A stretch of DNA of 60,402 nucleotides. Origin: Fidelibacterota bacterium (lineage in GTDB: Bacteria > Fidelibacterota > Marinisomatia > Marinisomatales > JABMOV01). The translations under genes were made by a program, and so were the position numbers. The notes beneath the pieces are model-generated. The model was not told the DNA's origin. It saw only the letters and a list, made by a program, of their open reading frames with translations, and ran no database searches. Location of the stretch: positions 1 through 60,402 of the forward strand of contig JABMOV010000166.1 in the NCBI GenBank assembly GCA_013203145.1, in the 5' to 3' direction. Positions 9,537 to 15,485 of this stretch are shown one piece after another (within the stretch, counting starts at the first letter, position 1; each line of letters starts with the position of its first letter).

Positions 9537-10349
9537 CTAAAAGTTGGGTCCTTTAAAATCTCTTTTCACAATTTCTGTTGTAATAAAATCGAAAGCGATA
9601 TCTATGGAATCCGTTATTTTGAATAGTTTTAGATCTTCAGCGCTTATAGTTCGCGCTTTGACCAAATAATCCCAGTTTACAACATTGTTCCAAAAATCTT
9701 CGCCAAAGAGAATAATAGGTATTCGTTTTGAAATCTTTTTTGTCTGGATCAGCGTTAATATTTCCATGAGCTCATCTAATGTACCAAATCCACCGGGGAA
9801 TGCCACCAGAGCCTTTGCCAAATACGCCATCCAAAATTTCCGCATAAAAAAGTAATGAAATTGAATATCCAGATCATTTGTTATGTAAGGATTGCTTGAT
9901 GGTTCGAAGGGCAGGGTAATATTCATTCCTATAGATAATCCTTTAGCTTCGCTAGCGCCACGATTTGCAGCCTGCATGATTCCAGGACCACCACCGCTGG
10001 TTATGATATAGCGATGTTCTGAGTTTTTTAATTTTTTACTCCAGCGTGTTAATCGATCTGCTAATTGTCTTGCTGCATCGTAATATCGGCTGTTTTCTAA
10101 ATCTAACTCCAGAGTTTCTTTTTCATCATGTGAAATATCAGCTGGTGCTGAATCAATATTTGCTTGAGATTCCTCTGGCGATAAAATTCGAGCTGAGCCA
10201 AAGAAAACAATTGTATCACTAATTTTATTTTTTGCTAATCGAAGTTTAGGACCCAGATACTCCGATTGAATCCTCAGGGATCTTGCTTCTGTATCAGTAA
10301 GGAAGTCTTCATCCAAAAAAAATTCTTTTGATTTTGCTTTATCACTCAT
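9537..10349 (-). CDS. LOG family nucleotide monophosphate nucleosidase (Rossmann fold)
   Basis: FFGSAR, SGGGPGIM, HYFFMRK, PGGFGTLDE. Confidence 0.9.
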   Translation of the reverse strand: MSDKAKSKEFFLDEDFLTDTEARSLRIQSEYLGPKLRLAKNKISDTIVFFGSARILSPEESQANIDSAPADISHDEKETLELDLENSRYYDAARQLADRLTRWSKKLKNSEHRYIITSGGGPGIMQAANRGASEAKGLSIGMNITLPFEPSSNPYITNDLDIQFHYFFMRKFWMAYLAKALVAFPGGFGTLDELMEILTLIQTKKISKRIPIILFGEDFWNNVVNWDYLVKARTISAEDLKLFKITDSIDIAFDFITTEIVKRDFKGPNF

Positions 10350-10542
10350 TAAACGTTCTCCGCGTAAAAATCCAAGTTACACTTTTTATAGCCGAGAGGA
10401 AATAGAATAAGTAAGTGGATAAGGAGAATATTGGGAGATTGGGGAATTGCTATTCTCTTGAGCTTTTGAGCAGGGGAATGGTGGAGTAGTACGTGATTGA
10501 GTTTCACTAATCGATGGTCAGTTTTCGACATTCATACTTCAA

Positions 10543-13500
10543 TTATCCTTGTTCAACAATTCTAATTTCTTCATCTGTTAAACCATAGAGATCATAAACC
10601 ATTTTGTCTATTTCTTTGTCGGTTTGGTCAATTTGTTTTTTGAGTTCTTGGGCTTTGCCTTTTTGCGCGTTGAAGTATTGCATCCATTCGGATTGTTCTG
10701 CTAAGGGCAAGGGACTGAAGTCCCTTGTTGTGGTTTTTGCTACAATTTTTCTGGCTTTTCCCAGTTCCTTTAAAAATTCACCAAATTCCAATTCATGCCA
10801 GTTTTGGAGCTTTTTGCTGAGTTTCTCTAGGTCGAATTTGGATTGGAGGAGATTTGAAAATTGTGCAACCATTTTTGAATAATTTTCTATGTATAAAGCA
10901 ATATTGAAAGAATATAATCCAATATTTGATTGTACCTTCTTTCTTACCAATGGAATCTTGAGTTGCTTAATATCCGTCAGTAATATCTGAGGAAAAGCTT
11001 GTTCATTTGTAATCATTTTCTGTCTGACAATGTATGTTAGAAATTTTGAGTTTAACAATGCCAATAAATAGTCCAACCTAACTCTATCATCTTTATTAGA
11101 ACATGAGTACAATGTGCTTTTGGTCAGAGCAGGTTTAGGAAGCATTACACAACACAAAAAATCTCCAGTTCTTCGAATTAAAATTCGAGGGGCAATAGAA
11201 TGTTTTTCAATTTTTTTTGTTCCCCCTACAATAGTCAATTCGCTATAGTCACAATAGTATTTATCCTTAATGAAATATTTATCTATGCAATTCCCAAGTA
11301 GGAATATATTTGGATTGTATACTTTCTCTTTCTGAATAAAATTGCTACGATTCTTAACTACCATACCTTTAAATAAATTACATAAATCTGTCAATATTGG
11401 AAAATCTAGTGTCTCATATTTTAAAGTGATAGAATTACTATTGTTTAGCTGTTCTCGGATTACTTTGTTTTTATTCATATATAGCTCTTCAAATTGAATT
11501 GATGAGCATTTATTTTTTATAAATTCAAAAATCATACTTCCAGTTGTAGCATCTTCAAAAACCCATTCTTCAAAATAAAGAGCTTTATTTATTTTACCGT
11601 GTAAAAGCAACTCATCAACACAATCTGAATAACTTCTAGTTTTTAGAAATCCTTCAGGAACAATGAATGATACAATACCGTCTGATTTTATTAAGTTGCA
11701 TGATTTTTCATTAAACAACGTGTATAAATTTTTTGAGTATGCTTTTTTAATACTTTTATATTTATTTATATAGAAATCAAGCCAAATTATGTTAGTATTA
11801 TTTTTGGTCATATTCAAATACGGTGGATTTCCAATCACCACATCAAAACCGCCTTTGTATTCCGAACGGAAAGCATATTCATAATCGCAACACATACCAT
11901 CTATTTCTGCGACAAGGGAGTTAACTCCCTTGTCGTCGATTACGGGCGGCAACTTGTGCTTGTCCCGGTTGGTCTGGATATAGCCTACAGCATTTCTTAA
12001 TTGTTCTTCGCAACCAATCTCTTTGCAACCAAATTTCTGTGTCCATAGGTGAACATTTTTATCTTTTTCTGCTATAAGAGGTGTTTGGGCAAGGGGCTTA
12101 AGCCCCTTGTCGCCGGAAAACTCTTTATCTTGATCTTTGATTTTATGATACGCTCGGGAAGTCTTTCCTTTTATTTTTTGCATTATTTTCGGGACTTCGT
12201 CTATTTCACACACCAGCAGTAGATGTATATGGTCCCCACAAATATTGTACGCTAAAACATTCAACTTGTCTTCTTTGACAATTCCTGAGATAACTTTTGT
12301 TATCAGCAATTCATCTTCTGCATTTAACCAAATAGGTTCGGCATCTGGTCTTAACCCGTCATCACGTTTTTCACGCACTTTATAATCAACCATCCTCTGG
12401 GATGTACGAGAATCATGCGTAGCGGTCGTTACATGAAAAGCCGTTTTGCTTTTTTCAAGGAATATCCCTGGGAACTCTTTTTTCCAGTTAAATGCTTTTT
12501 CTCCCGCAACTTCAGGATCATCTATCAAAGAGTTCCCACATTTGATGTTATTGCTCAAGGATGTAAGTTTTCTGCCACGTTGTGCAGTTCGCAACCAAAG
12601 GGAAAGTTTAGCAATATCTACACTTTCTTCATTTATATCAACACCATAAATGTTTTGTTCAAGGATATGATTACTTACATCCTGGAATACAATACTAATT
12701 CCCAATAGTTGGGCATGGAGTTCATCAATGTAGGAATGTTCCTTGATGAGAAATTCTAAAGCCTGGTTGAGGAAAGCACCGCTACCGCAAGCAGGATCGC
12801 AAATTGTAATATTGAGTAACCACTTTCTATACTCATTTAATGTAGTATCTAATTTTTTAATAGTATTCTTTTTTCGGTTTTTTCTCCCTTTTGTATACTC
12901 TTCATCTATTATTCCGAATTCAGTTTTCTTTTCGTCACAAAGTTTGCCTATTGTATTATCTACAATATATTTAGTGATGTATTTTGGTGTATAAAAAATG
13001 CCGTCTTTTTTACGTTTGGTTTTACTCTTTTCAATCTCCTGACCTTCTAATCGGGCTGTTATATTTTCAATTTCATTTAATGAATTTTCGAAAATGTGCC
13101 CCAGAATGTTAACATCTACTTCGCTTTGAAAATCATAAGAAGTCATTTTTAATACATGTGGTTTTAGTACATTATCATCAACAAGAGTCTTTACAACAAG
13201 GGTTCCCGTTCTAACAAGGGACTTAAGTCCCTTGTTAAGTCCCTCGTTGTGAAAGTCAGCATCCAATACTTCATCCGGAAGAAACAAACCACCATTATAG
13301 GCAAATATATCATCTTGGCGTGTTTTCCCTATTCTTCCAATATTGATATAATCGAAGTACTGTTTAAAAATTTCGTATAAGGGTTTATAGGCATCTTCTT
13401 CTTGCAGTAAATCAAAACGTTTTACCATTCGGCTAATGGAGTTTGGTGGCAATAATCCACTATCCTCTGCAAAGAAGATGAAAAGAAATCTATCGAGCAA

Positions 13501-14190
13501 TTTTTGTGTTTTCTTAAATAATAAAAGTTTATCGTGATCGGGACTATTTTTTACAATGTTTTGCCAAAGTTCTGTTTTAAACGTTGAGTAATCCTTATAA
13601 AGTTGTTTGGTAATATTGTCCTCTACCAGTATACTTTCTTTTTTTACTTTTTGCGGTATCCCTCCAAGTAGATTGTCCACCTGTAAGCATAACCAGAGTA
13701 TTTCAAATTCATCTTTGGTAAGGATAAATAAATTGAATTCGATGTGCTCTACGGCATTATGAATGAAAAAACGAAGTTTTTCAAAATTGGAGGTTATAAC
13801 ATAGGTGCAATCTGTATGATTATTTTTATAATCAAATGCCTGCTTATTGATTTTATCTAAATCTTTGGTATCAGTCCCTTTTAATTCAATGACAGCGAGA
13901 GCTTTATCATTCTGTAAAATTGCGCCATCAGCTTTTTTTGCGCCAGTTTCGTTTGTATATTCTGTTGTCAGATTAAAATTGGGATTTGGATTTAGTGTAT
14001 ATCCCAAAATATTTACAAACAATTCACGTAAAAACCCCTCTTGAAACTGTTCCTCTTTTGCATCCTTGATATTTTGTTGAATTTCAGGATTATGGAAATA
14101 CTGAGTAAACGTATTATAGGCATCTTCTACAACTTTTTTATTCTGATTATTGAGGTATTTATTGAGTACTGATTTTTGAAATAGGGGCAT
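10543..14190 (-). CDS. Type IIG (Eco57I-like) restriction-modification enzyme with an in-frame HUH/Y1 transposase-like domain
   Basis: N-terminal ADG...IELK nuclease motif; GIFYTPKYI, CDPACGSGAF, YGVDIN, GNPPY adenine MTase motifs; C-terminal TRD; inserted domain before GGFDVVIGNPPY. Confidence 0.9.
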   Translation of the reverse strand: MPLFQKSVLNKYLNNQNKKVVEDAYNTFTQYFHNPEIQQNIKDAKEEQFQEGFLRELFVNILGYTLNPNPNFNLTTEYTNETGAKKADGAILQNDKALAVIELKGTDTKDLDKINKQAFDYKNNHTDCTYVITSNFEKLRFFIHNAVEHIEFNLFILTKDEFEILWLCLQVDNLLGGIPQKVKKESILVEDNITKQLYKDYSTFKTELWQNIVKNSPDHDKLLLFKKTQKLLDRFLFIFFAEDSGLLPPNSISRMVKRFDLLQEEDAYKPLYEIFKQYFDYINIGRIGKTRQDDIFAYNGGLFLPDEVLDADFHNEGLNKGLKSLVRTGTLVVKTLVDDNVLKPHVLKMTSYDFQSEVDVNILGHIFENSLNEIENITARLEGQEIEKSKTKRKKDGIFYTPKYITKYIVDNTIGKLCDEKKTEFGIIDEEYTKGRKNRKKNTIKKLDTTLNEYRKWLLNITICDPACGSGAFLNQALEFLIKEHSYIDELHAQLLGISIVFQDVSNHILEQNIYGVDINEESVDIAKLSLWLRTAQRGRKLTSLSNNIKCGNSLIDDPEVAGEKAFNWKKEFPGIFLEKSKTAFHVTTATHDSRTSQRMVDYKVREKRDDGLRPDAEPIWLNAEDELLITKVISGIVKEDKLNVLAYNICGDHIHLLLVCEIDEVPKIMQKIKGKTSRAYHKIKDQDKEFSGDKGLKPLAQTPLIAEKDKNVHLWTQKFGCKEIGCEEQLRNAVGYIQTNRDKHKLPPVIDDKGVNSLVAEIDGMCCDYEYAFRSEYKGGFDVVIGNPPYLNMTKNNTNIIWLDFYINKYKSIKKAYSKNLYTLFNEKSCNLIKSDGIVSFIVPEGFLKTRSYSDCVDELLLHGKINKALYFEEWVFEDATTGSMIFEFIKNKCSSIQFEELYMNKNKVIREQLNNSNSITLKYETLDFPILTDLCNLFKGMVVKNRSNFIQKEKVYNPNIFLLGNCIDKYFIKDKYYCDYSELTIVGGTKKIEKHSIAPRILIRRTGDFLCCVMLPKPALTKSTLYSCSNKDDRVRLDYLLALLNSKFLTYIVRQKMITNEQAFPQILLTDIKQLKIPLVRKKVQSNIGLYSFNIALYIENYSKMVAQFSNLLQSKFDLEKLSKKLQNWHELEFGEFLKELGKARKIVAKTTTRDFSPLPLAEQSEWMQYFNAQKGKAQELKKQIDQTDKEIDKMVYDLYGLTDEEIRIVEQG
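10708..10727. repeat. REP-like palindrome, copy 1
   Basis: CAAGGGACT-GA-AGTCCCTTG, perfect 9-bp arms, inside the RM CDS. Confidence 0.85.
11910..11935. repeat. REP-like palindrome, copy 2
   Basis: CGACAAGGGAGTTAACTCCCTTGTCG, perfect 26-bp palindrome inside the HUH insert. Confidence 0.9.
12090..12109. repeat. REP-like palindrome, copy 3
   Basis: CAAGGGGCTTAAGCCCCTTG, perfect 20-bp palindrome inside the HUH insert. Confidence 0.9.
13212..13249. repeat. REP-like palindrome, copy 4, plus an overlapping half copy
   Basis: TAACAAGGGACTTAAGTCCCTTGTTA (13212-13237), perfect 26 bp, followed by the half-site TTAAGTCCCTCGTTG (13235-13249). Confidence 0.9.
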
Positions 14191-14401
14191 AAGGGATTTT
14201 AATTATTTTCGCTTTTATACATTGACATATAGTGTCTCAATAAACCGAATAATTGGGTTTACCATGGATATTAACCGATATATCACACAATATCCTCATT
14301 ATTAATATTTTAACTAGTCACCTAATCCATCTTATTAAAGACTCTGACAATCTATCTCTAATATTTGTCAATGTTCAATGAAGAAATATTTTACCTACTG
14401 T

Positions 14402-14431
14402 AAACAAAAAACCCCGCCGAAGCGGGGTTTT
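14402..14431 (-). terminator. Rho-independent terminator
   Basis: Minus strand AAAACCCCGC-TTCG-GCGGGGTTTTTTGTTT just after the stop at 14454. Confidence 0.9.
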
Positions 14432-14453
14432 ATAGAAGTCGGGATTACACCAT

Positions 14454-15485
14454 TTATTTAATATATGATAACTTCCCGTTAACGAACTCATTTCCTTGTT
14501 GAATCGTATAGATATAAAGACCGGTACTTACTTTTTGTCCCTGGATATTTGTAGCATCCCATTGCACTTGGTTAGTACCTACACCAACTTTCTTTTTAAC
14601 GAGTTGGTTAACCAATTTTCCATTTAAATCATAAATGGTAACGCTAACTGGTGTCGATTCCATTATTTCGAATGTTATAAGCGTAGTTGGATTAAATGGA
14701 TTGGGAAAACTATGATGTTGAATACGATATTTTTCAGCAAAACCATCCTTAATACCCAAAGCGTCTGAATTTCCAGTATCTTCAAGTAAAGTCAGGGATA
14801 CAACACCAATTCTACTTAATGATAAATCACATTCCATTAGGAAACCTGTGACTTCAACATAGTTACCACTTTCAGGAAGGAATGCTGTAGAATCTTGATG
14901 AATCCAATGCCGTAATTTTAATCCATAGTCAGCTTCACCGTCATTTTCCACATCTAATAAAACCCGAGGATGAGGACGATCAGGGATTTCTTCAAGAATA
15001 ATATATCCTGTGACCGTTGTTTGTTCACCTTCGGGATTTTCACCGTACCCAACGAAATTACCCTCATCATCTAATGGGAGCCATTGCTCACCATTTAATG
15101 TAAATACGACCAGAAATTGTCGATTTGGTGTTTCGACCAATCCACCAACCATATCAATAACATCTCCGGCGGCTGGCCTGGTTGCACCACTTTCAGGTGT
15201 ATACCATTCTGGACCAAAACGTAAATCATAGTCAGATAACCCATCGCTATCACTATCCAGATGATACCGAGTGACAACTGTGCAGTGGGTTGAATCTTCT
15301 GTCAAAATAACTGTTCCAGAGACAGTTAATGTATCGGAAAAGCCGGGAAATTGACCGTGATCTCCGTGATGACCGGAACCTCCATGGTGACCACCGCCTG
15401 GTCCCCCAGGTCCACCAGGGCCTCCTTGTGCAATAATAAATGTTCCGTAGATTAAGGAAATAAATAACAGGGATTTGATTTTCAT
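14454..15485 (-). CDS. Secreted protein: Gly/Pro/His-rich leader, two tandem repeats, FlgD/T9SS-type C-terminal domain
   Basis: GGAGGA RBS before ATG 15485; signal peptide; FPNPFNPTT...IYDLNGKLV...WDA...STGLYIY tag. Confidence 0.8.
   Translation of the reverse strand: MKIKSLLFISLIYGTFIIAQGGPGGPGGPGGGHHGGSGHHGDHGQFPGFSDTLTVSGTVILTEDSTHCTVVTRYHLDSDSDGLSDYDLRFGPEWYTPESGATRPAAGDVIDMVGGLVETPNRQFLVVFTLNGEQWLPLDDEGNFVGYGENPEGEQTTVTGYIILEEIPDRPHPRVLLDVENDGEADYGLKLRHWIHQDSTAFLPESGNYVEVTGFLMECDLSLSRIGVVSLTLLEDTGNSDALGIKDGFAEKYRIQHHSFPNPFNPTTLITFEIMESTPVSVTIYDLNGKLVNQLVKKKVGVGTNQVQWDATNIQGQKVSTGLYIYTIQQGNEFVNGKLSYIK

Follow-up and report, generated by a model that had tools for sequence, protein, structure and literature searches.

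RAYT-type enzymes and REP hairpins are widespread, their biological role and spread are debated, and RAYT-associated REPs are usually extragenic. In-frame REPs located within stand-alone RAYT genes have been published for TnpA_Y1 subclass 2.4, according to the available text of Quentin et al. 2018 (PMC6006769). We compared with these systems a locus of the window (the whole stretch of 60,402 nucleotides that was analysed) in which a HUH domain is embedded in a predicted restriction-modification (RM) enzyme. As in the REP/RAYT systems described in the available text of PMC6006769, the locus pairs a Y1 HUH enzyme with one family of short hairpins rich in GC; as in subclass 2.4, the hairpins keep the frame, most of them lie in the stretch from the HUH to the Tyr motif, the region that they occupy is peripheral and variable, and both subclass 2.4 and the present family are found in Bacteroidetes. 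Unlike in REP/RAYT systems, the HUH unit is here a domain of a 1215-aa RM enzyme and not a free-standing protein of ~150-330 aa, and the copies are few, all four being intragenic in the genome of the window, with 4-33 copies in other genomes, about 1-10 of them in the gene. Unlike in subclass 2.4 as presented in that text, hairpins occur throughout the fused gene, with 19 of the 54 located outside the cassette. A pattern search of the window flanks of the RM gene found no hairpin copy, whereas copies adjoin the gene at loci L067 and L033. The 5' tag of REPs, given as GT[AG]G in the available text of PMC6006769, is absent from these hairpins, which are flanked as YAA-core-TCA (n=66), and the protein motifs are DHxH and YIxNNR here versus NH[IFV]H and YIxNNP there. 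The same text states that unexpectedly long proteins, attributed to gene fusions or annotation errors, were discarded.

The IS200/IS605 TnpA proteins resemble the cassette in their fold, in their HUH and Tyr motifs and in their presumed single-stranded hairpin substrate. Unlike IS200/IS605, however, the locus has no two-ended element, no multi-copy transposase gene and no free-standing enzyme, and its hairpins are perfect palindromes scattered singly, unlike the subterminal hairpins of those elements. Intragenic REPs and Rickettsia palindromic elements are likewise in-frame repeats in genes that stay open; the available text of Di Nocera et al. 2013 (PMC3733652) places many such repeats in DNA replication and repair genes and notes that some ORFs are the sole decorated ones in their species. 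The repeats described there form abundant genome-wide families in unrelated genes, whereas those studied here lie mostly in the gene for the presumed mobilising domain. The locus shares with MmeI/Eco57I-type enzymes, as described in the accessible literature, the order of nuclease (here putative), helical spacer, gamma-type N6-adenine methyltransferase and target-recognition domain (TRD), as well as the swapping of the TRD between alleles. Our search of that literature returned no described MmeI/Eco57I-type member whose methyltransferase contains a HUH domain or whose gene contains hairpin repeats; the fusion to an RM enzyme and the near confinement of the hairpins to the host gene look new relative to the published stand-alone RAYT cases.

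The predicted RM gene and its HUH cassette

The gene is predicted to encode an MmeI/Eco57I-type (type IIG) restriction-modification enzyme of a family with more than 500 members. Its features are as follows.

10543..14190, minus strand: RM gene with embedded HUH cassette; 1215-aa ORF, predicted type IIG (MmeI/Eco57I-like)
13879..13929, minus strand: putative PD-(D/E)xK nuclease motif (D88 ... E102-L103-K104), from alignment A1
12772..12798, minus strand: methyltransferase motif I, DPACGSGAF, invariant in A1
11857..12459, minus strand: IS200/RAYT-type HUH-Tyr (Y1) cassette, aa 578-778, between '..EFPGIF' and GGFDVVIGNPPY
12217..12234, minus strand: HUH motif DHIHLL, aa 653-658 (H654, H656), both His invariant in 24/24 cassettes
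11980..11982, minus strand: putative catalytic tyrosine Y737 (VGYIQTNRDKH), invariant in 24/24 cassettes
11818..11829, minus strand: methyltransferase motif IV, NPPY, invariant in A1; the exchangeable TRD segment has its left edge here
10861..11814, minus strand: target-recognition segment, replaced in the syntenic allele L110 (blastn blocks and alignment)

Motifs I and IV of the gamma-class N6-adenine methyltransferases were present, and the Pfam matches to Eco57I (2.9e-34), MmeI_Mtase (1.1e-11) and N6_Mtase (3.4e-11) all exceeded the cut-off. Further matches were to Y1_Tnp (8.8e-11) and TaqI_C (3.6e-13), the latter scoring 50.3 bits against a cut-off of 26.5 over aa 964-1077 of the C-terminal TRD, a segment that differs between alleles. 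Residues D88, E102, L103 and K104 of the putative nuclease motif showed no variation in alignment A1 (30 homologous sequences), and the matches to MmeI_N (18.4 bits) and HSDR_N (18.6 bits) were weak and under the cut-off.

The cassette is inserted within the methyltransferase, and comparison with HUH-less homologs showed a clean indel at a single fixed site. It matched Pfam PF01797 with 42.4 bits (cut-off 23), and its AF2 model (pLDDT 82.7) had a helix over fragment residues 152-163 that includes Y737 (fragment residue 161). The Foldseek matches listed through rank 26 were all IS200/IS605-family transposases or the RAYT 4ER8, and included ISDra2, IS608, IS200, S. tokodaii and DR_0177; against solved TnpA structures (2XM3, 2VJV, 2A6O and others) the fold matched with a probability of 1.0 and a target-normalised TM of 0.6-0.67. 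A sequence-only search of the PDB with the cassette gave weak matches (E of 0.09-0.3). The HUH domain is intact, its HUH histidines, its tyrosine and its TnpA fold all being kept, and it belongs with the Y1 HUH superfamily by its HUH motif, its single Tyr on a C-terminal helix, its profile and its fold. The cassette is single-copy in the genome, the other Y1 matches being at most 25% identical (E>=0.07). There are also stand-alone proteins, 154-217 aa long, that begin and end where the cassette does, and in 201 sampled genomes of one family the four cassette matches were all within long RM ORFs.

Hairpins in the window and across the family

The hairpins of the RM gene and the arm-like stretches beside them are listed below (palindromes and the arm-like stretch without strand).

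13212..13237: hairpin 4, 26-nt perfect palindrome (core 13215-13234), read LNKGLKSLVR; pattern match and folding
12090..12109: hairpin 3, 20-nt perfect palindrome, read DKGLKPLA; between the HUH and Tyr motifs
11910..11935: hairpin 2, 26-nt perfect palindrome (core 11913-11932), read DDKGVNSLVA; shortly after the Tyr motif
10708..10727: hairpin 1, 8-bp stem with 4-nt loop, read TTRDFSPLP in the other phase; pattern match and folding
13235..13246, minus strand: half copy, a former left arm (CGAGGGACTTAA on the coding strand) that a 12-nt indel has displaced, from the alignment of the window with L110
13194..13211: further arm-like stretch (AACAAGGGTTCCCGTTCT) adjoining hairpin 4, read from the sequence

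A search of the window with the consensus pattern, allowing at most two mismatches, gave four matches (10708-10727, 11913-11932, 12090-12109 and 13215-13234) and none in 100 dinucleotide shuffles. The palindromes that a sequence-only reading had placed at 10708, 11910, 12090 and 13212 are thus all present, 11910 and 13212 being the starts of the extended 26-nt palindromes. The central mismatch reported for copy 1 is a 2-nt central asymmetry (TGAA loop), the three other copies being perfect, and the compensatory changes described for the arms are real: positions 7-8 of the stem are complementary to positions 13-14 in 4/4 copies, with three inner stems among them, GGGAC/GTCCC (twice), GGGAG/CTCCC and GGGGC/GCCCC. 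Folded as single-stranded DNA, hairpins 1 to 4 gave -7.7, -12.5, -9.0 and -10.2 kcal/mol, with z-scores of -3.3, -7.1, -2.6 and -4.1, respectively. That no copy occurs elsewhere, which had been judged by eye for the window, holds genome-wide, since CAAGGG-N8-CCCTTG was found four times in 2,846,263 bases; these only copies of the 2.85 Mb genome are all in the RM gene, and its frame is kept open. An Rfam search (evalue mode) of window positions 10000-14700 returned no family at the gathering score.

The bases preceding CAAGGG on the coding strand of the window copies are ACAA, ACGA, GCGA and TTAA. The shared 5' foot that had been proposed from such bases was retained in part: across the family (n=66), an A is found at -1 in 55 copies and at -2 in 46, with C or T at -3 in 34 and 18, and no fuller foot is conserved. 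The half copy noticed beside hairpin 4 is also real; it is the old left arm and lies next to the 12-nt indel that separates two alleles. An additional CAAGGG occurs at 13197 within the neighbouring arm-like stretch, and on its letters this stretch (13194..13211) may be the remnant of a hairpin arm. Hairpin 4 sits in a 25-aa insertion that has no counterpart in other homologs and hairpin 3 falls in a low-confidence loop of the AF2 model (fragment residues 115-136). The peptide of hairpin 2 was modelled confidently (pLDDT 86-94).

The cassette was present in 21 of 80 genome loci. GC-rich perfect palindromes numbered 48 in 73.4 kb of the HUH+ genes (20 of the 21 loci) and 10 in 155.8 kb of their flanks; the HUH- genes had one such palindrome in 177.6 kb, and their flanks had 10 in 596 kb. 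In full-length genes, 54 hairpins were found in 23 HUH+ genes against one family-type hairpin in 94 HUH- genes (290 kb), and hairpin density was ~100-fold higher in HUH+ genes than in HUH- homologs. This contrast showed that the hairpins go with the cassette across the family. In 40 relatives without the cassette (search at E<=1e-10), no convincing hairpin copy was detected: the inner pairs were complementary in only one of six pattern matches, which is the chance level, and a reversed control pattern gave five matches.

The proportion of genomic copies located in the gene varied between genomes, being 4/4 in G042, 2/4 in G045 (the other two are one identical palindrome elsewhere and one non-palindromic copy), 1/5 in G044, where three more lie within ~600 bp, and 10/33 in G041, whose cassette is the genome's only Y1_Tnp match. 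The link between hairpins and HUH domain asserted by the sequence-only reading is backed by G041, by the cassette-less relatives and by the HUH+ versus HUH- densities. A preference of off-gene copies for RM genes was considered and set aside: G041 showed it, with 7 of 23 off-gene copies in further genes for RM enzymes or methylases, among them two of MmeI type and one EcoRI-like methylase gene, whereas in G043, G044 and G045 all seven off-gene copies are intergenic or at ORF ends.

Comparison of the reading phases of the 54 copies showed that two phases were used 27 times each and the third never; this unused phase would meet a stop in the TAA/TGA flank or in the TTAA centre. One phase gives peptides of the NKGxxPLV type and the second those of the TRGHxPLS type (27/54 hairpins). 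The window contains both, hairpins 2, 3 and 4 (DDKGVNSLV, DKGLKPLA and NKGLKSLV) being in one phase and hairpin 1 (TTRDFSPLP) in another, as had been noticed from the letters; the accompanying suggestion, that constraint acts on the hairpin rather than on the peptide, gains from the unrelated peptides given by the two phases over 54 hairpins and 23 genes. The orientation relative to the coding strand was forward in 32 copies, reverse in 2 and uninformative in 12. The genes contain from 1 to 10 hairpins, mostly in variable or disordered loops, at sites that vary even between close alleles. The family hot spots 697-701, 753-757 and 1148-1155 correspond to the sites of hairpins 3, 2 and 1, respectively, and the two main ones, inside the cassette and directly after it, are common to most family members. 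The copies at these two hot spots are probably orthologous among family members, so that the counts of phase and orientation do not represent independent events.

Allele comparisons

The 31 HUH+ loci included a single close DNA pair. Comparison of the window with L110 showed that, at hairpin 4, a 12-nt arm duplication and two flank changes separate the alleles and produce the 26-nt perfect palindrome; the 12 nt are likewise missing from contigs of runs X3 and X7. Proteins P0008 and P0009 are ~97% identical over ~770 aa, and the three indels found there are all at hairpin sites. The MmeI paralogs of G041 share their hairpins and are therefore uninformative on the inserted unit.

The sequence-only reading had also proposed that the palindromes bracket the TRD as exchange points. 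In the syntenic L110, the TRD is swapped between window positions 11815 and 10860. The first of these junctions falls at the NPPY motif and is 98 nt away from copy 2; the second, where the conserved C-terminal region begins, is 133 nt away from copy 1. Identity between P0008 and P0009 is lost directly after GNPPY, and a contig of run X3 has 1147 different letters between 10860 and 11818. The allele junctions lie at conserved motifs instead of at the hairpins, and the alleles compared do not support that proposal.

Population data were taken from Logan contigs of four runs, which showed no hairpin-to-hairpin joint; such contigs are blind to rare excisions. Joints that run from 11856 to ~12580, as well as the loose ends found at 11818 and at 11850-11857, have sides of 21-39 letters and fall on the conserved stretch coding for GGFDVVIGNPPY, so that they were read as homologs of other organisms. 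A joint end at 10701, 7 nt from hairpin 1, was read in the same way: its matches cover only 42 and 35 nt, and the contigs carry 1192 letters of their own between these sides, which indicates another homolog and not an excision.

Origin and meaning of the hairpins

We consider it probable that the hairpins are REP-like, cognate to the embedded HUH domain, and that they accumulate in cis as in-frame, stop-free insertions. Since the same pairing is seen in relatives, the HUH domain probably recognises the hairpins and seeds them into its own gene. The domain would bind the hairpin on single-stranded DNA through the conserved CAAGGG/CCCTTG outer stem, with an inner stem and loop that may vary, and would nick and rejoin beside it, copying units of ~20-26 nt into nearby single-stranded DNA. 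This action would take place mainly in cis, possibly, while transcription and translation of its own gene are coupled, on the non-template strand of that gene, so that copies would amass in the host gene with a single orientation. Selection would retain only stop-free, in-frame insertions in tolerant loops, and re-copying of one arm from the other would keep the palindromes perfect and make arm changes appear compensatory. The hairpins would then be passengers or by-products of the domain, and not parts of the RM machinery.

Several observations count against this explanation. Several hairpins align to non-gap columns and the apparent net insertion is +12 nt, a family-type hairpin occurs in one HUH- gene (L138), and genome G000 has six further distant Y1 genes that are possible partner enzymes. 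The off-gene copies of G041 that lie in other RM genes are not predicted by a purely cis passenger model.

It is unlikely, in our judgement, that the hairpins are functional cis elements, either operator-like DNA sites or mRNA stem-loops, that let the HUH domain or a different factor adjust the expression of an RM enzyme with toxic potential. Between alleles, hairpins 2 and 3 are identical at 40/40 positions, versus 493/566 (87.1%) in the rest of the cassette, and this conservation, together with the near-universal hot spots, could equally indicate that the hairpins serve a function; the strong orientation bias relative to the transcript (32 versus 2) and the presence of copies in the two MmeI-type genes and the EcoRI-like methylase gene of G041 agree with such a role. 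However, copy number (1-10) and positions vary even at ~97% protein identity, the stretch from the HUH to the Tyr motif is free of hairpins in some cassettes, the off-gene copies of G043, G044 and G045 are ordinary intergenic repeats (7/7), and no Rfam family reached the gathering score. Another possibility, to which we give a negligible probability, is that selection for a peptide motif NKGxxPLV produced the palindromes as a by-product, or that they arose by chance, in either case unconnected with the HUH domain. Three window copies do encode similar peptides in one phase, and that of hairpin 2 was confidently modelled, but half of the family copies are read as TRGHxPLS-type peptides and others occur in intergenic DNA, so that this reading is already contradicted; moreover, the shuffles contained no match, and the 94 HUH-less homologs, with the same protein framework, contained only one family-type copy.

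Two further readings seem to us very improbable, and to the same degree. The hairpins could be HUH-cut exchange points around TRD modules that drive specificity switching or domain shuffling: copies 2, 3 and 1 do flank the segment that is exchanged in L110 relative to the window, family members are mosaic in the TRD and in the N-terminal half, and a nick at a hairpin might start a recombination that is resolved in adjoining homology, the hairpins then acting, as they may, as distant initiators. The position of the L110 junctions away from the hairpins speaks against this, as do the same left junction in P0008/P0009, the lack of a hairpin-to-hairpin joint in the contigs of the four runs, the absence from the genome of a second hairpin-bearing partner copy, and the equal modular TRD diversity of HUH-less relatives that have no hairpins. 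Alternatively, the hairpins could be the ends of an in-frame IS200-like element with which the cassette moves in and out of RM genes, the rest being solo ends. Presence of the cassette is nearly unlinked to the N-terminal tree (FastTree, 117 rows, 23 HUH+), which needs 17 cassette changes, at least 13 of them forced, and the clean indel at one fixed site, the stand-alone proteins ending at the cassette borders, and the two main hot spots in and just after the cassette would fit such an element. However, neither the window nor alignment A2 shows a hairpin on the 5' edge of the cassette, the genome has just one copy of the cassette, and mosaic recombination between conserved motifs fits the tree equally well.

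Beyond the cis accumulation of cognate hairpins that we favour, the HUH domain might be an active hairpin nickase or transposase that acts during transcription on the non-template strand of its own gene, making this gene a self-editing locus with raised TRD replacement and spill-over in G041; we rate this as quite improbable. Gain, loss and arm re-copying of hairpins would remodel linker loops, nicks at the hairpins that flank the TRD would speed its homologous replacement, and in genomes such as G041 the activity would spread to other RM genes.

In the present family, the enzyme is locked in a large, easily assayed protein and its presumed substrates are a few defined hairpins in its own gene. 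This makes a compact system for the study of hairpin recognition and movement by Y1 HUH enzymes, of cis action, and of the reason why a restriction enzyme keeps such a domain. Annotators should take the unusual NKGxxPLV and TRGHxPLS peptides of these RM proteins as translated repeats and not as protein motifs. If the self-editing possibility were true, the locus would provide a further route to variation in restriction specificity, and would be a dedicated diversity-generating device derived from a domesticated transposase.

The four palindromes and the gene that encloses them

Pattern and palindrome searches of the window, together with an alignment of the RM–HUH protein with 29 relatives, gave the following features.

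10543-14190, reverse strand: RM–HUH gene, a long ORF of 1215 aa enclosing the whole interval of palindromes
11857-12459, reverse strand: HUH cassette, about 200 aa (aa 578-778; alignment)
10708: 20-nt palindrome core of hairpin 1 (pattern search)
11913: 20-nt core of hairpin 2, extending to a 26-nt perfect palindrome from 11910 (palindrome search)
12090: 20-nt core of hairpin 3
13215: 20-nt core of hairpin 4, extending to a 26-nt perfect palindrome from 13212

The positions reported in an earlier sequence-only reading were correct, as were its compensatory inner-stem changes between copies (GGGAC/GTCCC, GGGAG/CTCCC and GGGGC/GCCCC) and its observation of more than one reading frame: three copies share a phase (NKGLKSLV, DKGLKPLA and DKGVNSLV), and the fourth has another (TTRDFSPLP). 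The palindrome pattern had no match in 100 shuffles of the window, and the folding energies of the four palindromes as single-stranded DNA were -7.7 to -12.5 kcal/mol. The absence of copies elsewhere in the window, also claimed by that reading, extended to the whole 2.85 Mb assembly, where all four occurrences of the outer-stem motif CAAGGG-N8-CCCTTG were inside the RM–HUH gene.

By Pfam, the protein is an MmeI/Eco57I-type bifunctional restriction-modification (RM) enzyme (Eco57I, 2.9e-34; MmeI_Mtase; N6_Mtase; MmeI helical spacer; TaqI_C target-recognition domain, TRD) with an additional match to 'Transposase IS200 like' (PF01797, 42.4 bits for a cut-off of 23) at aa 622-687. The alignment showed that the cassette is inserted in the methyltransferase between the conserved '..FNW..EFP.IF' and 'GGFDVVIGNPPY', and it is absent from the homolog of a related genome (L002) and from many other homologs. 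The HUH histidines H654 and H656 and the tyrosine Y737 were kept in 24/24 aligned cassettes. The AlphaFold model of the cassette had a pLDDT of 82.7, and its Foldseek matches in the PDB, among those listed through rank 26, were all IS200/IS605-family transposases (including ISDra2, IS608, IS200, S. tokodaii and DR_0177) or the E. coli RAYT with bound REP hairpin (prob 1.0); PDB matches by sequence only were weak.

The gene has genes for a LOG-like protein, an amidohydrolase, a T9SS-sorted protein and an M19 peptidase as neighbours, a setting that does not resemble a defence island. Just upstream, at 14357-14521, there is a cluster of weak Rfam matches, none of which reaches its gathering score; its source is probably a stem-loop of terminator type that belongs to the neighbouring gene.

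Association of the hairpins with the cassette

A search with aa 560-780 returned 557 proteins at E<=0.001 (932 candidates). The 120 fusion matches listed all carried PF01797 plus Eco57I-type families and were mostly from Bacteroidota by source-given names; the RM–HUH fusion is common. Hairpin-type peptides (NKGLKPLA, KGINPLV, NKGFKPLV and KGACSLV, or TTRGHVPLS, TTREHAPLS and TRDLSPL) were inserted at many different places in the alignment of relatives.

At the DNA level, we compared 80 homologous loci from reference genomes, split by a cassette HMM into 21 with the cassette (HUH+) and 59 without it (HUH-).

GC-rich perfect palindromes (stem >=8, loop <=2) in homologous loci
HUH+ genes: 48 in 73.4 kb (20/21 loci)
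HUH+ flanks: 10 in 155.8 kb
HUH- genes: 1 in 177.6 kb
HUH- flanks: 10 in 596 kb

The remaining HUH+ locus has a copy of lower GC, below the GC filter of the count. When metagenome loci were added and full-length genes alone were retained, 54 hairpins were found in 23 HUH+ genes, while 94 HUH- genes (290 kb) had one family-type hairpin and one unrelated palindrome. Since 19 of the 54 hairpins are outside the cassette, the association is not merely that of the cassette's own copies carried along. The outer stem was mostly CAAGGG/CCCTTG, with variants including CAATGGG, CACCGGAGC and GGGGAGC, and the inner stem and centre varied freely with complementarity kept. In 40 genomes of the same order with no cassette at E<=1e-10, the outer-stem pattern had 6 matches and a reversed control pattern had 5; five of these 6 were not hairpins and one had two inner pairs, about as expected by chance. 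The hairpin observation holds, on a much wider scale than the sequence-only reading saw, and a link between the hairpins and the HUH domain is well supported by comparison.

In the sole HUH- homolog with a family-type hairpin (L138:4073-4092), the hairpin lies at the aa 382 hot spot and is read SREQAPLQ; it may have been left behind when the homolog recombined with a gene that carried the cassette, or may have been inserted in trans. In some homologs, two or three different hairpins adjoin each other (L028:1669-1706 and 2571-2608; L030:7060-7122): a stem of 7-8 bp with a loop of AACA or AATA immediately precedes the main palindrome on its 5' side. Such arrays could be composite elements.

Hairpins were also counted genome-wide in five other carriers.

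Hairpins in five other carrier genomes
G042: 4 total; 4 in gene; 0 elsewhere
G044: 5 total; 1 in gene and 3 within ~600 bp; 1 elsewhere
G045: 4 total; 2 in gene; elsewhere 1 identical copy and 1 non-palindromic match
G043: 7 total; 2 in gene; 5 elsewhere, of another subtype
G041: 33 total; 10 in gene; 23 elsewhere

The only Y1_Tnp match in G041 is the RM–HUH-type cassette, an argument that the embedded domain, not another transposase, goes with the hairpins. The window's own genome has six other Y1 genes, each <=25% identical to the cassette. All seven off-gene copies of G043, G044 and G045 were between ORFs or at ORF ends, a placement like that of ordinary REPs. The 23 off-gene copies of G041 were in two MmeI-type genes without the cassette (6/23), an EcoRI-like methylase gene (1/23), an unannotated 814-aa ORF (3/23), near the starts of other ORFs (2/23) or in no long ORF (11/23, several within a repeated unit near contig ends). 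The seven in RM-type genes (L099:1533-4646, L106:1-2394 and the methylase/T5orf172 gene at L097:273-1826) are in frame; this preference was seen in G041 alone and not in the three other genomes. At five places near contig ends (L093:214, L094:1634, L109:1668, L102:2006 and L098:2068), the hairpin is inside a longer repeat with common flanks, which may be a larger repeat or a mobile element breaking the assembly.

In a tree of the N-terminal 577 aa (FastTree only), the 23 HUH+ among 117 genes need 17 state changes, of which well-supported branches force at least 13, against a shuffled mean of about 21; the cassette and the N-terminal half are thus almost unlinked. Either repeated gain and loss of the cassette or recombination between conserved motifs, as suggested by mosaic alleles, would be the cause. 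Hairpins in N-terminal halves were nearly confined to genes now with the cassette, implying that they are gained quickly in its presence or lost quickly in its absence. There are also short predicted proteins (154-217 aa) that both start and end at the cassette borders and in which the HUH and Tyr motifs are separated by the same kind of hairpin peptides; seven stand-alone predicted proteins of 176-217 aa (P0122, P0124, P0129, P0141, P0149, P0158 and P0163) match the cassette border to border and have these peptides at that place too. A free-standing 163-aa IS200-like gene (L051:9014-9502; PF01797, 6e-29) lies 70 bp downstream of an HUH- RM homolog. The window's own genome also has another RM gene fragment (C84:39020-40732), which lacks both cassette and hairpins; its identity to the RM–HUH protein is 76% over aa 468-577 but only 32% over aa 779-1214, another sign of mosaic RM genes.

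Placement and turnover of the hairpins

The palindrome centre was at a codon boundary in 27 of 54 hairpins, after the second codon base in 27 and after the first base in none; in this unused phase, the usual 5' flank (TAA, TGA or CAA before CAAGGG) or a TTAA centre would be in frame and would often give a stop.

Hairpin hot spots (window aa numbering)
aa 382-387
aa 697-701: between the HUH and Tyr motifs; window copy 3
aa 753-757: just after the Tyr motif; window copy 2
aa 1148-1155: window copy 1

Other hairpins were single cases at ten other places, and window copy 4 (aa 318) is at a private site. The copy 3 loop is the one low-confidence stretch of the cassette model (fragment residues 115-136). 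Coding-strand flanks were asymmetric (YAA-core-TCA, n=66), and among 46 in-gene copies, which are not independent events because those at common hot spots were probably inherited, 32 had this orientation, 2 the reverse and 12 were uninformative. We saw no coding reason for the orientation bias.

Comparison by blastn of the window and L110, a metagenome contig with a syntenic allele, showed an identity of 97% upstream and of 92.7% through the gene to 11815, followed by a non-homologous TRD segment and by 99.85% from 10860 onward. Hairpins 2 and 3 were identical at 40/40 positions, the rest of the cassette at 493/566 (87.1%). The stem of hairpin 4 is imperfect in L110; 12 added bases duplicating the left arm and two flank changes give the 26-nt perfect palindrome of the window, and the old left arm remaining beside it is the 'half copy' of the sequence-only reading. 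The identical 12-nt difference was found in contigs of two other runs. In this one case, one arm looks to have been re-copied from the other, a process through which palindromes would stay perfect and arm changes would look compensatory. P0008 and P0009, two homologous proteins, are ~97% identical over the first ~770 aa, where the only indels (3/3) are at hairpin sites. The RM gene of L110 (2989-6826) is split into ORFs of 808 and 450 aa, with a stop codon soon after NPPY, where its different TRD begins, and may be inactive in that strain.

The hairpins had also been proposed as exchange points for TRD switching. The window and L110 do differ by a TRD exchange, but its junctions, at 11815 (NPPY codons 11818-11829) and 10860, are separated from hairpins 2 and 1 by 98 nt and 133 nt, respectively, and the identity of P0008 and P0009 ends at the same place, after GNPPY. 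Moreover, the modular build is the same in HUH- relatives without hairpins, the genome has no second hairpin-bearing exchange partner, and contigs of four runs, which would miss rare forms, had no hairpin-to-hairpin joints. The exchange-point idea is therefore not supported and has a low likelihood, although a nick at a hairpin could still start recombination resolving in the adjoining homology.

Relation to REP/RAYT systems

In Quentin et al. 2018 (PMC6006769), RAYT subclass 2.4 is found in Cyanobacteria and Bacteroidetes, and unexpectedly long proteins were excluded and ascribed to gene fusions or annotation errors. REPs inside genes, many of which serve replication and repair, are described by Di Nocera et al. 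2013 (PMC3733652), who also mention the palindromic elements that lie in frame in Rickettsia genes. In-frame intragenic REPs, the heart of the phenomenon, are thus already known. Our full-text literature search found no type IIG RM enzyme with an HUH unit among its domains, no hairpins spread over a whole fused gene and no REP-like family with few copies mostly or wholly inside its host gene. In contrast to classical REP/RAYT systems, the RM–HUH hairpins are neither abundant nor extragenic and lack a GTAG-type tag, and the enzyme does not stand alone. The RM–HUH system would work like REP/RAYT, yet it should not be classed as a plain member. The most likely reading, with moderate confidence, is that the palindromes are cognate REP-like hairpins: the embedded HUH domain would seed them, mainly in cis, and they would survive only as in-frame insertions in loops.
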